Assembly: GCA_050010435.1 (NCBI GenBank)
Contig: JBEKKZ010000008.1
Span: 5,511 to 69,510, forward strand
Reading direction: 5' to 3'
Origin: Verrucomicrobiota bacterium
GTDB taxonomy: Bacteria; Verrucomicrobiota; Verrucomicrobiia; Limisphaerales; UBA11358
Length of the DNA stretch: 64,000 bases
Positions within the stretch are counted from its first letter, which is position 1. Each line of letters opens with the position of its first letter. Below the pieces are notes generated by a model. It did not search any database. It had not been told where the DNA came from and worked only from the letters and a program-made list of their open reading frames with translations. Position numbers and translations under genes: made by a program. Below are positions 34,489 through 60,181 of this stretch, one piece after another.

Positions 34489-34565
34489 GCCAGCGTAGCT
34501 CAGTTGGTTAGAGCGTGGGACTCATAAGCCCGAGGTCACTGGTTCGATTCCAGTCGCTGGCACCA
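34489..34565 (+). tRNA. tRNA-Met (anticodon CAT; elongator type, tRNA-Ile2/lysidine not excluded)
   Basis: Manual cloverleaf: acceptor GCCAGCG/CGCTGGC, D arm GCTC/GAGC, anticodon loop CTCATAA, T arm ACTGG-TTCGATT-CCAGT, encoded CCA. The G1-C72 pair argues against an initiator. One A/G mismatch closes the anticodon stem. Confidence 0.85.
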
Positions 34566-45949: not shown

Positions 45950-46077
45950 GCCCGACTTGAATGACCGGCAAATTCCGGTCTTTCTCCTAACCCAAACGAT
46001 TCTCGAAGTCAACCGCCGCCGGATTAAAAATAAAAGGCACAAGATATCCCCTGTGCCTTGAGCAAGCCGGGCAGTGG

Positions 46078-46458
46078 TTACTGCAGGACATGCGGGGGGT
46101 TAACCGTTGTGCCGAGTGAACAAACCGCCTGCGGAATCGTGCCCACAGTCTGCAGACTGTATTCGCCAAGGGCGGGGCAGGGGGGAATTGACCCTGCGGA
46201 ATTCAATTTGATGTAGGCTGTAATATCATCGGGATAATTGACCGTGTCCCCGACGTGCAATCCTTTTTCGATCGCAACCTGTTGGACTGCGGATTCAATC
46301 TGTCGCAGATTGTTGATGCAGGCGTTGGCTTGCGAAACGGTGCGGGCATGCAAAAAGCTGGGAATGCCAATTGCCGCCAAGATGCCTATGATGGCCACGA
46401 CAATCATGATTTCCACGAGCGTGAAGCCCGCCAAGAGCGAAGCTTTGGAGGTTTTCAT
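46078..46458 (-). CDS. Prepilin-type N-terminal cleavage/methylation domain protein (pseudopilin 1)
   Basis: ORF trimmed to ATG 46458. Has MKTSKASLLAGFTLVEIMIVVAIIGILAAI followed by ANACINNLRQIE. Confidence 0.85.
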   Translation of the reverse strand: MKTSKASLLAGFTLVEIMIVVAIIGILAAIGIPSFLHARTVSQANACINNLRQIESAVQQVAIEKGLHVGDTVNYPDDITAYIKLNSAGSIPPCPALGEYSLQTVGTIPQAVCSLGTTVNPPHVLQ

Positions 46459-46570
46459 ACTATATTTTCTTTCGGTTATGCGGCGTGAACCACGCAACGG
46501 GCGAGTTATAATGTAATGATTACGGTTACGTTCACTAATTGCCCATTGCGACCGCAATTCGATATTTAAT
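46459..46570 (-). promoter_or_regulatory. Conserved structured 5' leader of pseudopilin 1
   Basis: Plus-strand coordinates of the four pairing segments: 46485-46490, 46495-46502, 46530-46535, 46541-46548. See the finding on the leader. Confidence 0.45.
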
Positions 46571-46587
46571 TAGCAGTACCAATGCCA
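46571..46587 (-). promoter_or_regulatory. Sigma54-type (-24/-12) promoter
   Basis: Sense strand TGGCATtggtaCTGCTA. GG and GC are spaced as in TGGCAC-N5-TTGCW. Confidence 0.55.
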
Positions 46588-46640
46588 AAATCCAAGTGAA
46601 AAACAGGAGATTTTTTTGAGAATCAGCTTGCCTGGGTTCA

Positions 46641-46677
46641 AAAAAGCAAAAAGGCCCGAAGCCTTTCGCTTCGAGCC
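46641..46677 (-). terminator. Rho-independent terminator after pseudopilin 2
   Basis: Sense strand GGCTCGAAGC-GAAAG-GCTTCGGGCC followed by TTTTTGCTTTTTT. Confidence 0.75.
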
Positions 46678-46698
46678 TTTGAATCAAACCCGGTATTA

Positions 46699-47073
46699 TT
46701 ACGGCAGAATGTGGGGGTTGCTGGTAAGGGTACTCAGCGAGCAAGTCGGAACATCGCCCACATTAGCGAGAGTGTAATCGCCGCCAGCCGGACACGGAGG
46801 AATGCTGCTGGCAGAGTTCAACTTGATGTAGGGCGTCAAGTCGGTGTTCATAACAATTGCATCACCGGTCTTTTTGCCTTGTTCCAGCGCGAATTGATGC
46901 GCGGCGGCGTCAATCTGGCGCAGGTTGTTGATGCAAGCATTCATCTGCGAGGTGGCGCGGGCTTTCACGAAGTTGGGAATGGCGATGGCTGCCAAGAGGC
47001 CGATAATGGCCACGACAATCATGATTTCCACCAATGTGAAACCTGCCTTGCGGGGGGTTTTGGAATTTTTCAT
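46699..47073 (-). CDS. Prepilin-type N-terminal cleavage/methylation domain protein (pseudopilin 2)
   Basis: MKNSKTPRKAGFTLVEIMIVVAIIGLLAAI, MNACINNLRQIDAAAHQFALEQGKK. Confidence 0.88.
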   Translation of the reverse strand: MKNSKTPRKAGFTLVEIMIVVAIIGLLAAIAIPNFVKARATSQMNACINNLRQIDAAAHQFALEQGKKTGDAIVMNTDLTPYIKLNSASSIPPCPAGGDYTLANVGDVPTCSLSTLTSNPHILP

Positions 47074-47184
47074 TTTTATTTTTCTTTCCGTTTATTGCGG
47101 CGTGAGCAGATCAACAGGCAGGTTACAATGAGTACGTTTTTGCCCACGAGATTGCCTGTTGCAACCACAACTTATTTAGAAGGT
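47074..47184 (-). promoter_or_regulatory. Conserved structured 5' leader of pseudopilin 2
   Basis: Pairing segments at 47102-47108, 47112-47120, 47141-47147 and 47153-47161. Confidence 0.45.
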
Positions 47185-47201
47185 TAGCACTCGCAGTGCC
47201 A
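47185..47201 (-). promoter_or_regulatory. Sigma54-type (-24/-12) promoter
   Basis: Sense strand TGGCACtgcgaGTGCTA. Confidence 0.6.
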
Positions 47202-47256
47202 AAGTCCAAGCAAACCGAACCGACCATTATCTCAAAAATGGCCATTTGTGTTAAAA

Positions 47257-48716
47257 AGTCGGTCCTGAAGAACGCGCAGGCACTTGGCGGGAGTTGTGTC
47301 AGGCGAAGAGACACATAAAAGTTTTCGACCGGAAAATTGAATTAAGGCTGCAAAATCCGGTCGAAAGGAACGATGCAAGCCAAGCTCTCTGCCACCGGCC
47401 AGACTTCGTTCCTGATGCCCACGCTGGCTGAACAACTGGATCCGCGCCAACCGATCAAACAACTGGCCGACACGCTGCCCTGGCCGGAGTTCGAGCAGGT
47501 CTTCGGAAAGTATTACAGCCCGGACGGTCGCCCGGCCAAGCCGGTGCGGCTGATGGTGGGTCTGCTGTTGCTCAAGCAGATGTTCAATCAGGGCGACGAG
47601 ACGGTGGTGGCCGCCTGGGTGCAGAACCCCTACTGGCAATACTTCTGCGGGATGAGCGAGTTTCAGTGGCAGGCACCCTGTGATCCCAGTGACTTGGTCT
47701 ATTTTCGCGACCGAATCGGCGAAGCCGGGATGCAGCGCATTCTCCGAGTCAGCGCGCAATTGCACGGAGACAAGGCACAAGAGCCGGAAGTGGTGGTGGA
47801 CACGACGGTGCAGGAAAAGAACATCACCCATCCCACCGACACGAAACTGGCCCACAAAATCATCCGCCGCTGCTGGAAGCTGGCGGATCGCAACGGGGTC
47901 AAACTACGTCGTCGCTACCGCAAGGCCGTGCGGCATTGTGTGATGGCCCAACGCTGGCGCAGAGACCCGAAGAAGCGGAAGACGGCCCACCGGGCCTTAC
48001 GGAAAATGAAAGTCATCGCGGGCCGCCTGATCCGTGAGCTGGAGCGCAAATTGCCGGAGGCGGCGCACGCGGAACAACGGAGGAACTTCGCATTGTATCG
48101 GCGCGTGTTGCGCCAACAACCCTCCGACAGGGACAAGATTTACTCGCTGCACGAACCGCAGGTCTATTGCCTGAGCAAAGGCAAGGAACACAAGAAGTAT
48201 GAGTTTGGCAGCAAAGCCTCGGTGGTGATGACCAAGACAGCCGGAGTGATCGTGGGCGCGGTCGCCCATGAGGAGAATCTTTACGATGGCGACGCGCTAC
48301 GACCCGCGCTCCAACAAACCAAAATCATCACCGGCCAACAACCGGCCAAAGCGATTGTGGATCGTGGCTACCGCGGGCGCAAAACCGTGGACGGCACGGA
48401 AGTGTTGCTGCCTGGTAAACCCAAACCAGGCCAGAGCAAGTCGATGAGCGCAAAGATGAGAGCACGATTTCGGCGGCGGGCGGCGATTGAACCGGTGATC
48501 AGCCACTTGAAACACCAGTATCGGCTGGCACGCTGCTTCCTCAAAGGGTTCGTGGGGGATCAAGTGAATCTGTTGCTGGCCGCAGCGGCGTGGAATTTAC
48601 GGAAGTGGCTGCGGGCGGCGGCCCTTTTTTGGCTTCAATTGTTTCGATGGTTTGCCAACCAGCAAATACCCCTCACAGCCTCGCCTTATTCCTGAAAGAG
48701 TTTTTCAGGAACGACT
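47257..48716 (+). mobile_element. Intact IS5-family insertion sequence (~1.46 kb)
   Basis: Terminal inverted repeats agtcggtcctgaagaacgc (47257-47275) and the reverse complement of 48698-48716 (agtcgttcctgaaaaactc) match at 16 of 19 positions. Single transposase ORF. The A-rich flanks make the target duplication ambiguous. Confidence 0.8.
47373..48695 (+). CDS. IS5-family DDE transposase
   Basis: N-terminal InsH/DUF772-like region (GRPAKPVRLMVGLLLLKQMFNQGDE), VVVDTTVQEKNITHPTD, IVDRGYRG, and the C-terminal GDQVNLLLAAAAWNLRKW typical of IS5/IS4-type DDE enzymes. Confidence 0.88.
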   Translation: MQAKLSATGQTSFLMPTLAEQLDPRQPIKQLADTLPWPEFEQVFGKYYSPDGRPAKPVRLMVGLLLLKQMFNQGDETVVAAWVQNPYWQYFCGMSEFQWQAPCDPSDLVYFRDRIGEAGMQRILRVSAQLHGDKAQEPEVVVDTTVQEKNITHPTDTKLAHKIIRRCWKLADRNGVKLRRRYRKAVRHCVMAQRWRRDPKKRKTAHRALRKMKVIAGRLIRELERKLPEAAHAEQRRNFALYRRVLRQQPSDRDKIYSLHEPQVYCLSKGKEHKKYEFGSKASVVMTKTAGVIVGAVAHEENLYDGDALRPALQQTKIITGQQPAKAIVDRGYRGRKTVDGTEVLLPGKPKPGQSKSMSAKMRARFRRRAAIEPVISHLKHQYRLARCFLKGFVGDQVNLLLAAAAWNLRKWLRAAALFWLQLFRWFANQQIPLTASPYS

Positions 48717-48720
48717 AAAT

Positions 48721-48754
48721 AATAAAAAAGGCCCGAAGCCTTTCGCTTCGAGCC
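48721..48754 (-). terminator. Rho-independent terminator after pseudopilin 3
   Basis: Same hairpin as 46641-46677, followed by a T-run on the sense strand. Confidence 0.75.
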
Positions 48755-48775
48755 TTTGAATCAAACCCAGTCTTA

Positions 48776-49153
48776 TTACGGCAGAATGTGGGGTGGAGTA
48801 ACCGTGGTCAACGAGCAAGTGATTTGCGGAATGGCACCCACAGTACCCACAGTATAGCTGCCGCCAGCCGGACACGGAGGAATGCTGCTGGCAGAGTTCA
48901 ACTTGATGTAGGGCGTCAAGTCGCTCGGCCAAGTGATGGAGTCACCGGTCTTTTTGCCTTTTTCCAGCGCGAATTCATTCGCCGCGGCGTCAATCTGACG
49001 CATGTTGTTGATGCAAGCATTGGCTTGCGAGGTGGCACGGGCCTTCACGAAGTTGGGAATGGCAATCGCCGCCAACAGGCCGATAATGGCCACGACAATC
49101 ATGATTTCCACCAATGTGAAACCTGCCTTGCGGGGGGTTTTGGTATTTTTCAT
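48776..49153 (-). CDS. Prepilin-type N-terminal cleavage/methylation domain protein (pseudopilin 3)
   Basis: ORF trimmed to ATG 49153. MKNTKTPRKAGFTLVEIMIVVAIIGLLAAI, ANACINNMRQIDAAANEFALEKGKK. Confidence 0.88.
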   Translation of the reverse strand: MKNTKTPRKAGFTLVEIMIVVAIIGLLAAIAIPNFVKARATSQANACINNMRQIDAAANEFALEKGKKTGDSITWPSDLTPYIKLNSASSIPPCPAGGSYTVGTVGAIPQITCSLTTVTPPHILP

Positions 49154-49262
49154 TTTTATTTTTCTTTCCATTTTATGCGGCGTGAACAAGACAACAGGCG
49201 GGTTACAATGATTACACTTTGTTCACTGATTGCCTGCTGCAACCGCACCTTATTTGGCAGGT
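49154..49262 (-). promoter_or_regulatory. Conserved structured 5' leader of pseudopilin 3
   Basis: Pairing segments at 49182-49189, 49192-49199, 49219-49226 and 49232-49239. Confidence 0.45.
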
Positions 49263-49279
49263 TAGCACTCGCAGTGCCA
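49263..49279 (-). promoter_or_regulatory. Sigma54-type (-24/-12) promoter
   Basis: Sense strand TGGCACtgcgaGTGCTA, identical to the 47185-47201 site. Confidence 0.6.
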
Positions 49280-49535
49280 AAGCCAAAGGAGAAAATGCGT
49301 CTGCCTTTGGCGTCCGTCAACCAATCCAGTGCACTGAATAAAGCGAAATAAGGATTCAACGGCCAGGAACTGTGTGGTTTTCCTGTGAAAACCGCCATGC
49401 GCGTTTTGTTGCGATGTCTCAACTTGAAGCGCTCTGTAGGATTTTTGGACATGGTGGAGGCAAATAACTTGCACCGTTTTAGTTCAATCCGCGCCTTCGC
49501 TTCTTGCTTCGGCGCGGCAAGTTGTGGCTTAATCA

Positions 49536-50282
49536 ATGCCCGTGAACACGATTGGTATCGTTCCCGCACGTTATGCTTCAACGCGGTTTCCCGGCAAACC
49601 GCTCGCGCTCATCGCCGGCAAGCCGCTGATTCAGCACGTCGTCGAGCAATGCCAGAAAGCCAGGTCGCTGAGCGAAGTCATCGTGGCGACGGACGACACA
49701 CGGATCTGGGAAGTGGCACAGAATTTCTGTCGCGCGGAAATGACGCGACCGGATCATCCGAGCGGTTCCGATCGCATCGCCGAAGTCGCCGGGCGTTGCA
49801 CCTGCGACGCGGTGGTGAACATCCAGGGCGACGAACCGTTGATTGACCCGGCGGTGATTGACGCGGTTGCCGGCGCACTCGCGCGCGACGAAATGTCCAC
49901 TGCTGCCACGCGTATCAAAAATCCTGAAGAACTCGACAATCCGAATGTCGTAAAAGTCGTTGTCAGCGCCACTGGCCGCGCGTTATATTTTTCCCGGCGC
50001 ACGATTCCGCATCTGCGCGCGGCCGCCAGCCGTTCAGCGAGCGAACGGTTGGCGGCATTTGCTTTTTTGAAGCACCTCGGCATTTACGGCTACCGGCGCG
50101 AGACGCTGCTGCGGCTGGTGAAATTCCCGGTGTCGCCGCTGGAAAACGCGGAGAAACTGGAGCAGTTGCGCGCGCTGGAAAATGGCATTCAAATCGCGGT
50201 CGTAAAAGTGGATTACGACAGCGTGGGCGTGGATGGGCCGAAAGACGTGGCGCGGGTGGAGAAGTTGCTCCGCAACAAATGA
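49536..50282 (+). CDS. kdsB: 3-deoxy-manno-octulosonate cytidylyltransferase (CMP-Kdo synthetase)
   Basis: IVPARYASTRFPGKPL, VIVATDD, VNIQGDEPLI, GIYGYRRETL. Confidence 0.93.
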   Translation: MPVNTIGIVPARYASTRFPGKPLALIAGKPLIQHVVEQCQKARSLSEVIVATDDTRIWEVAQNFCRAEMTRPDHPSGSDRIAEVAGRCTCDAVVNIQGDEPLIDPAVIDAVAGALARDEMSTAATRIKNPEELDNPNVVKVVVSATGRALYFSRRTIPHLRAAASRSASERLAAFAFLKHLGIYGYRRETLLRLVKFPVSPLENAEKLEQLRALENGIQIAVVKVDYDSVGVDGPKDVARVEKLLRNK

Positions 50283-60105: not shown

Positions 60106-60181
60106 TGGTGCGCGGTACAAGACTTGAACTTGTGACCCCTACCGTGTCGAGGTAGTGCTCTGCCAACTGAGCTAACCGCGC
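60106..60181 (-). tRNA. tRNA-Val (anticodon GAC)
   Basis: The reverse complement folds manually. Acceptor GCGCGGT/ACCGCGC, D arm GCTC/GAGC, anticodon arm CTACC-TCGACAC-GGTAG, T arm ACAAG-TTCAAGT-CTTGT, encoded CCA. Confidence 0.92.

Follow-up and report, generated by a model that had tools for sequence, protein, structure and literature searches.

Each of three prepilin-type genes in a 64,000-nucleotide (nt) stretch of DNA from a Verrucomicrobiota bacterium (GCA_050010435.1, contig JBEKKZ010000008.1; hereafter the window, in whose positions all coordinates are given) is preceded by a leader that very probably folds into a real and conserved RNA pseudoknot and acts in cis on the pilin mRNA. 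The motif is composed of three helices (P0, S1, and S2), and its copies, more than 200 in total, come from soil and peat Verrucomicrobia; we established how it folds, that it is RNA and of which strand, that it is conserved, and that it is linked exclusively to pilin genes. As an RNA family it is new but of a familiar kind, namely a conserved structured motif of a 5′ untranslated region (UTR) to which no function is assigned. Its covariation is unusually clean, and it occurs in an unusual setting, among verrucomicrobial pilin genes that form a multi-copy family and have apparent sigma-54 promoters. An Rfam search, proposed in the first-pass annotation of the window, was run with the 4227 covariance models of Rfam 15: at the gathering threshold the whole window gave two tRNAs only and no family for the leaders, and at E ≤ 10 the region 46000–49600 gave nothing inside the leaders. 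The literature that we searched on RNA motifs of pilins and pseudopilins, structured RNAs of Verrucomicrobia, and pilins of Limisphaerales contained no description of the motif, and a genome paper on Pelobacter proved to have no bearing on it.

The three genes are open reading frames (ORFs) on the minus strand, i.e., gene 1 (46078–46458; 126 amino acids), gene 2 (46699–47073; 124 amino acids), and gene 3 (48776–49153; 125 amino acids; type IV pilin- or pseudopilin-like), with the start of gene 1 at 46458 instead of the 46459 first assigned to it. All leader features given below are likewise on the minus strand. In the gene 3 leader, the covarying helix P0 is formed by GUGCGGU (49242–49248) and GCCGCAU (49175–49181), and S1 by GCAGCAGGC (49232–49240) and the DNA segment GCCTGTTGT, listed as RNA GCCUGUUGU (49191–49199). 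The 5′ strand of S2, GTGAACA (GUGAACA; 49220–49226), is located within the S1 loop and pairs with TGTTCAC (UGUUCAC; 49182–49188). A conserved unpaired block with low column entropies, GUAAUCAUUGUAACCC, occupies 49200–49215, and an A-rich spacer (49154–49174) leads from the motif to the AUG. The structured core of gene 2 (47095–47170; 78.5 bits with covariance model R1) contains P0 (47164–47170 with 47095–47101), S1 (GCAACAGGC at 47154–47162 with GCCTGTTGA at 47111–47119), and S2 (GTGGGCA at 47141–47147 with TGCTCAC at 47102–47108). That of gene 1 (46478–46557; 84.9 bits with the same model) contains P0 (46551–46557 with 46478–46484), S1 (GCAATGGGC at 46541–46549 with GCCCGTTGC at 46494–46502), and S2 (GTGAAC at 46530–46535 with GTTCAC at 46485–46490). 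S1 has 9 and S2 has 7 base pairs (bp), and the third, closing helix P0 (UGCGGU...GCCGCA; 6–7 bp) encloses both. The linkers measure 5–8 nt between S1a and S2a, 20–35 nt between S2a and S1b, and 3–6 nt between S1b and S2b; the P0 5′ strand is nearly contiguous with S1a, and S2b is contiguous with the P0 3′ strand.

The first-pass annotation had described these leaders as two interleaved helices with the segment order S1a-S2a-S1b-S2b, and we found this order at the places given there in all three genes. The two compensatory changes quoted in its support, from A-T in gene 2 to G-C in gene 1 within S1 and from A-T in gene 3 to G-C in gene 2 within S2, are also correct. The description had, however, missed the closing helix P0 and a sigma-54-type box lying 13–14 nt upstream, and the palindrome-like core GTAATCATT(A/G) that it placed between the helices does not hold, since gene 2 reads GTACTCATTG and there is no palindrome.

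Homologous leaders were collected from genomes and metagenomes. Scanning genomes with the protein of gene 3 gave 79 loci in about 55 species-level genomes, nearly all labeled as Verrucomicrobia subdivision 3 or Limisphaerales, and the covariance model (R1) was built from 33 leaders with P0+S1 as the structure. Metagenome contigs were searched with a DNA pattern that specified no gene and fixed parts of S1b and S2b, followed by the covariance model. In the genome sequences aligned on P0+S1 (A3; 106 distinct sequences), 92.2% of the cells are paired, 20 of the 23 pairs show double changes, and the covariation score is 0.314 vs 0.174 for shuffled alignments, none of the 500 shuffles reaching the observed value in any of the five measures. 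Re-alignment of the genome set on P0+S2 (A4; 108 distinct sequences) gave 92.5% paired cells, double changes in 21 of 23 pairs, and a score of 0.321 vs 0.174. The corresponding values for the independent metagenome set (A5; 116 distinct sequences) are 95.1%, 17 of 22 pairs, and 0.235 vs 0.144, and the observed value was reached by 0 of 500 shuffles in A4 and in A5 alike. The compensatory double changes total 155–220 in A3, A4, and A5; by helix, they are found in A4 at all seven pairs of S2, eight of the nine of S1, and six of the seven of P0.

When the 3′ partners in A3 were moved by 1–3 columns as a shifted-register control, pairing fell to 31–50% and the score to 0.03–0.09. An all-against-all mutual information analysis with average-product correction, given no structure, ranked the S1 pairs 16–89, 19–86, and 17–88 at the top, followed by the S2 pair 35–100, with the P0 pairs 3–110 and 2–111 at ranks 6 and 7; P0+S1 was also predicted independently by RNAalifold. 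G-U pairs far outnumber A-C mismatches in P0 (96:12 and 118:14) and S1 (82:19 and 72:9), indicating that the structure is RNA of the pilin strand, the only case in which such an excess is expected; S2 shows it less strongly (30:18 and 22:11). Model-fitted alignments lean towards the structure of the model, the shuffle control takes no account of phylogeny, and parts of S1b and S2b were preset by the metagenome pattern. Despite these caveats, the pair counts, pair types, shifted registers, and structure-blind ranking all agree. A lack of covariation in a larger alignment had been named in the first-pass annotation as the outcome that would reduce the conservation to gene duplication; the 106–116 distinct sequences instead show clear covariation, much stronger than in the three window copies, and support a structured RNA that is conserved and has two helices in interleaved order.

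The link to pilin genes is exclusive in the copies assessed. The covariance model gave 109 matches in the window and the 79 genome loci, all on the pilin strand, 108 of which lie 6–29 nt (most commonly 21 nt) upstream of a prepilin ORF. A further 121 matches came from the metagenome contigs; 113 of them allowed assessment, and each of these precedes a prepilin ORF, so that 221 of 221 assessable copies are directly upstream of a prepilin-type gene. Counted in reverse, the motif stands before 108 of the 130 prepilin-like ORFs (about four in five) in the genome loci. The pilins behind the leaders range from 100% down to 37% identity to gene 3, and because the linked pilins include proteins only 37–46% identical to it, recent duplication cannot explain the conservation. 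It might still be supposed that the leader is a DNA-level element, such as an operator or recombination site, or a leftover of recent duplication devoid of RNA structure, as the upstream regions of genes 1–3 are 79% identical when aligned and genes 2 and 3 look like recent duplicates with common terminators. We give this next to no credence: the excess of G-U over A-C points to single-stranded RNA of one strand, the double changes are far too many, and the motif is kept before such divergent pilins in about 55 species-level genomes. A DNA palindrome or operator was thus rejected on the G-U vs A-C asymmetry, and recent duplication on pilin divergence and species breadth.

Several pilin loci of the genome scan depart from the common pattern. 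The paralogs at L012:3810–4000, L014:4485–4675, L029:4970–5161, and L036:4970–5158 have no pseudoknot; a long, plain hairpin (AGUUUGCUG...CAGCAAACU) comes directly after the sigma-54 box and is itself followed by an A-rich spacer, in the same layout as the motif leaders with a simpler 5′ structure. In a subfamily of 130-amino-acid pilins (MRSKRTIKAS...AFTLVE; L070:3960–3992, L072, L077, and L079) the sigma-54 box lies merely about 14 nt before the ATG, and the mRNAs would be essentially leaderless. At L076:1531–1592 there is a degenerate relic of the motif, in which S1b and S2 are gone and the conserved AACCCGCCC pairs instead with the upstream GGGCGGGGUU. The metagenome-assembled genomes of loci L011, L015, L016, L030, L032, L034, L040, L045, L047, and L067 are labeled Bifidobacteriaceae, Acidoferrum, Acidiferrales, or Sulfotelmatobacter; as their pilin loci are of the Verrucomicrobia type, they are probably mislabeled or contaminated bins.

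The interleaved order of S1 and S2 had left two structures in view, a pseudoknot or a pair of mutually exclusive folds. The nucleotides of the two helices are disjoint, being interleaved in strand order only without competition for a common segment, and the linkers are long enough for both helices to form simultaneously. Enforced P0+S1 is more stable than P0+S2 by a mean of 6.2 kcal/mol, and more stable in 98% of the 106 sequences; P0+S1 is also the unconstrained minimum-energy fold of the window copies. If S2 were no more than an equilibrium alternative, it should hardly ever form; its pairing is nevertheless under selection, and the simplest reading is therefore that S2 forms on top of S1. 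These folding calculations favor the pseudoknot over the exclusive folds and suggest that both helices form together. A two-state switch, in which S1 and S2 would be mutually exclusive folds toggling expression, could draw on the interleaving of two helices that both covary. We consider it very unlikely, because S1 and S2 have no nucleotides in common, P0+S2 is the less stable fold by the margin given above, neither fold involves a terminator or the start region, and the other candidate alternative pairings are without covariation. The switch logic ascribed to the leader in the first-pass annotation likewise finds no footing, there being no common strand, no terminator, and no sequestration of the A-rich (59% A) start region. 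A conformational change driven by a ligand or a protein would go beyond what the sequences show.

The most conserved positions of the element are not the paired ones but the unpaired nucleotides, with entropies of 0.0–0.3 bit. Most conserved among these are AAU after S1a, G..U.AU of GUAAUCAU, and AACCC, and the columns below 0.3 bit are G47, U51, A53, U54, A70, A71, and C74. The near-invariant unpaired stretches AAU, GUAAUCAU, and UAACCC are located between the helices. The spacers from motif to AUG average 20 nt in length and consist of 59% A; they are not paired by the motif and are unpaired in the minimum-free-energy folds. No terminator-like site was found inside the leaders, and an attenuator was rejected on this ground. 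Two alternative helices between conserved segments were tried and rejected, i.e., S2a GUGA with the loop UCAU, pairable in 90% of the sequences, and the P0 5′ strand GCGGUU with AACC(C)GC, pairable in about 90%; the covariation of both equals that of the shuffles. The P0 5′ strand with its linker, UGCGGUUG (49242–49250, 47164–47172, and homologs), bears an apparent resemblance to the 3′ strand of 16S rRNA helix 45, CUGCGGUUGG, and AACC(C)G occurs in the motif as it does in the other strand of that helix; either likeness may be coincidence.

Invariant nucleotides within a pseudoknot of aptamer size are also what a small-molecule riboswitch would display. The pseudoknot would then be the aptamer, for example for a second messenger of surface behavior such as cyclic diguanylate (c-di-GMP), and ligand binding would alter translation or decay. 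SAM-II, preQ1-II, and fluoride aptamers are pseudoknot riboswitches, usually burying the ribosome-binding site in the pseudoknot. The motif resembles them in size, interleaved helices, and the combination of conserved loops with covarying stems, but differs in that its start region is outside the fold and in the additional P0 and the 20–35-nt S2a-S1b segment, which make another topology. About 20 near-invariant unpaired or junction nucleotides stand beside freely covarying stems, and the two complementarities between conserved segments, pairable in about 90% of the sequences, offer possible alternative pairings, for which no covariation above shuffles was seen. A precedent is Cdi-2-4, the class II c-di-GMP riboswitch that controls the major type IV pilin gene pilA1 upstream of which it lies in Clostridioides difficile (PMC6366702). 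Like Cdi-2-4, the motif is a pseudoknot-containing 5′ UTR RNA that may add control at the RNA level to the supply of a pilus subunit. Unlike Cdi-2-4, it matches no Rfam c-di-GMP model, has no terminator/antiterminator platform, and is assigned no ligand; c-di-GMP riboswitches, moreover, precede many gene types, whereas the motif precedes pilin genes only. A general signal would not usually be confined to one structural gene family, as all 221 assessable copies are, with none elsewhere. An expression platform is also absent, since the leaders have no terminator and leave the start region unsequestered, and no Rfam riboswitch is similar. A riboswitch is accordingly an unlikely function, though one that we keep under consideration. 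The compact pseudoknotted fold, invariant unpaired nucleotides, and 5′-end position would also suit a self-cleaving ribozyme or a processing signal by which the pilin mRNA would be trimmed at its 5′ end. We regard this as pure speculation and hardly probable, as no Rfam ribozyme family is matched and no cleavage-site signature is identifiable.

A sigma-54-type box (TGGCAY-N6-TGCT, i.e., GG-N10-GC) stands ahead of each of the three window leaders, with 3 matches against 0.16 expected by chance; the consensus is matched at 49264–49279 for gene 3 (TGGCACTGCGAGTGCT, with GG-N10-GC), at 47186–47201 for gene 2, and at 46572–46587 for gene 1 (TGGCATTGGTACTGCT), all on the minus strand. The GG-N10-GC box recurs in 180 of the 216 distinct leaders; at least 8 of the 11 sigma-54 consensus bases (TGGCAC-N5-TTGC context) are found in 81% of the leaders compared with 2% of random windows. 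Sigma-54-dependent pilin promoters are known for pilA of Pseudomonas and Myxococcus, where they are under PilS-PilR. The GG-N10-GC box before a type IV pilin gene is a feature that they share with the present leaders, but the PilS-PilR systems are described as transcriptional only, in contrast to the conserved structured leader that here follows the promoter. The −12 C of the box lies 8–20 nt, most commonly 13–14 nt, ahead of model position 1 in the distinct leaders, so that, if the predicted start holds, the transcript would have a stable helix only a few nt in from its 5′ end. For gene 3, transcription may start near 49253, and taking the start at about 12 nt past the GC, the untranslated leader is predicted to be about 100 nt long, with P0 starting about 5–7 nt from its 5′ end. 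Thus, provided that the sigma-54 box is a promoter, the motif would be at the very start of the transcript.

Such a position raises a serious rival to any regulatory role, in which the leader is a passive 5′-terminal protective and insulating fold, shielding an abundant pilin mRNA from 5′-end-dependent decay and keeping the A-rich ribosome-loading region unpaired, with no trans-acting reader. A P0 that begins a few nt from the predicted +1 fits this function, and so do the motif-less paralogs that have a plain long hairpin at the equivalent place, followed by an A-rich spacer. Stabilizing 5′ stem-loops are well established, the leader of Escherichia coli ompA being a 5′-terminal stem-loop mRNA stabilizer. 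The motif is like the ompA leader in combining a stable structure a few nt from the (predicted) 5′ end with the mRNA of a very abundant envelope protein, and unlike ompA-type stabilizers, which are simple hairpins with little sequence constraint, in its invariant loops and pseudoknot. Decay that depends on the 5′ end, by way of RppH and enzymes of the RNase E/G type, is a general process, and short homologs of RNase E/G exist in Verrucomicrobia (PMC3071783). For protection, however, a stable helix alone would do, and yet the unpaired nucleotides are the most conserved (0.0–0.3 bit). Maintenance of the pseudoknot across pilins of 37–100% identity is also more constraint than protection requires. 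We regard a purely protective fold as improbable on balance, to about the same degree as the riboswitch.

Loop conservation of this degree exceeds the need of a protective hairpin and suggests a specific tertiary fold that is recognized by something. Given the single gene family and the lack of an expression platform, we prefer a dedicated trans-acting factor, which would most likely be a protein, to a riboswitch for a general small molecule. We therefore propose, as a tentative combined statement whose probability we put somewhat short of even, that the motif is a cis-acting 5′ UTR element of pilin-paralog mRNAs in Verrucomicrobia subdivision 3, with a pseudoknot that is read by a trans-acting factor. 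In this proposal, the first ~80 nt of the transcript would fold into a compact three-helix pseudoknot, in which P0 would close about 5–7 nt from the predicted 5′ end, S1 would continue the P0 5′ strand, and in S2 a segment of the S1 loop would pair with the stretch immediately 5′ to the 3′ strand of P0. The invariant loops displayed between the helices could serve as the recognition surface for the factor. By acting on the unstructured A-rich ribosome-loading region directly 3′ of P0, or on mRNA decay, the factor might jointly set translation or stability across the pilin-paralog family. A comparable arrangement is the leader of phage T4 gene 32, where a 5′ pseudoknot nucleates binding of the single-strand-binding protein, which then covers the start site in an autoregulatory manner. 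Both leaders have a 5′ pseudoknot followed by an unpaired A-rich (in T4, A/U-rich) stretch into the start codon, but the sequences are unrelated, a membrane pilin is an unlikely RNA binder, and the protein partner in the present case is hypothetical.

Several observations weigh against the proposal of a trans-acting reader. No gene for an RNA-binding protein is linked to the loci, and the window neighbors that were checked are housekeeping genes. The start region is not base-paired by the motif, leaving no evident route from occupancy to expression. The sigma-54 assignment comes from consensus and spacing, and the transcription start and the simultaneous formation of S1 and S2 are predictions. 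Furthermore, 22 of the 130 pilin paralogs in the genome loci are without a detectable motif, some with a plain 5′ hairpin and some leaderless, which suggests that a simple protective role could suffice.

The three window genes have a common order of sigma-54-type box, 74–80-nt structured core, A-rich spacer of about 20 nt, and AUG. The ORFs contain the N-terminal prepilin motif GFTLVEIMIVVAIIG, with the prepilin cleavage/methylation signature (GFTLVE and a hydrophobic helix), and match PF07963 (N_methyl) and TIGR02532 above the cut-offs. The equivalog models for GspG, PilA, and ComGC match them only below the cut-offs, and the pilin subtype is thus not assignable. Intrinsic terminators are predicted on the minus strand at 46034–46059 (gene 1), 46650–46680 (gene 2), and 48727–48757 (gene 3). 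Judged from this layout, the best explanation is that each pilin gene is its own transcription unit, in which a sigma-54-type promoter is followed by an approximately 100-nt leader, a prepilin ORF of about 125 amino acids, and finally an intrinsic terminator. Genes 2 and 3 are near-identical in their 3′ UTRs and terminators up to the T-run and diverge beyond it, marking an insertion edge near 48700; by sequence, these two genes appear to be recent duplicates down to their common terminators. An IS5-family transposase ORF on the plus strand (47373–48695; NF033578, 455 bits) is inserted between the terminator of gene 3 and the promoter of gene 2. The pilin-gene neighbors are housekeeping genes (an ABC transporter, a kdsB-like gene, pyrG, a Mur ligase, a penicillin-binding protein, and uxaC), and among the ten large window ORFs checked, which have housekeeping functions only, there was neither a sigma-54 activator nor pilus machinery. 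The tRNA genes that gave the sole gathering-level Rfam matches in the window are at 34489–34562 (plus strand) and 60109–60181 (minus strand).

Verrucomicrobia subdivision 3 is, to our knowledge, abundant in soils, peat, and lakes and barely cultured, with almost nothing known of its gene regulation, and we are aware of almost no RNA regulation in the phylum as a whole. With more than 200 diverse examples and clear covariation, the motif is suited to the RNA family databases. It is conceivable, although we consider the chance rather low, that it represents a novel class of regulatory RNAs that sense a ligand or a protein and set dozens of sigma-54-driven pilin paralogs per genome under one post-transcriptional signal; a second-messenger riboswitch of a new type, or a 5′ pseudoknot that blocks decay and is read by a dedicated factor, would be examples. 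Of the small pilin paralogs in the genome loci, about four in five (108 of 130) share one highly constrained fold at the 5′ end of their mRNAs, and the motif thereby points to a common RNA-level control of the supply of surface-filament subunits, on top of the putative control by sigma-54.

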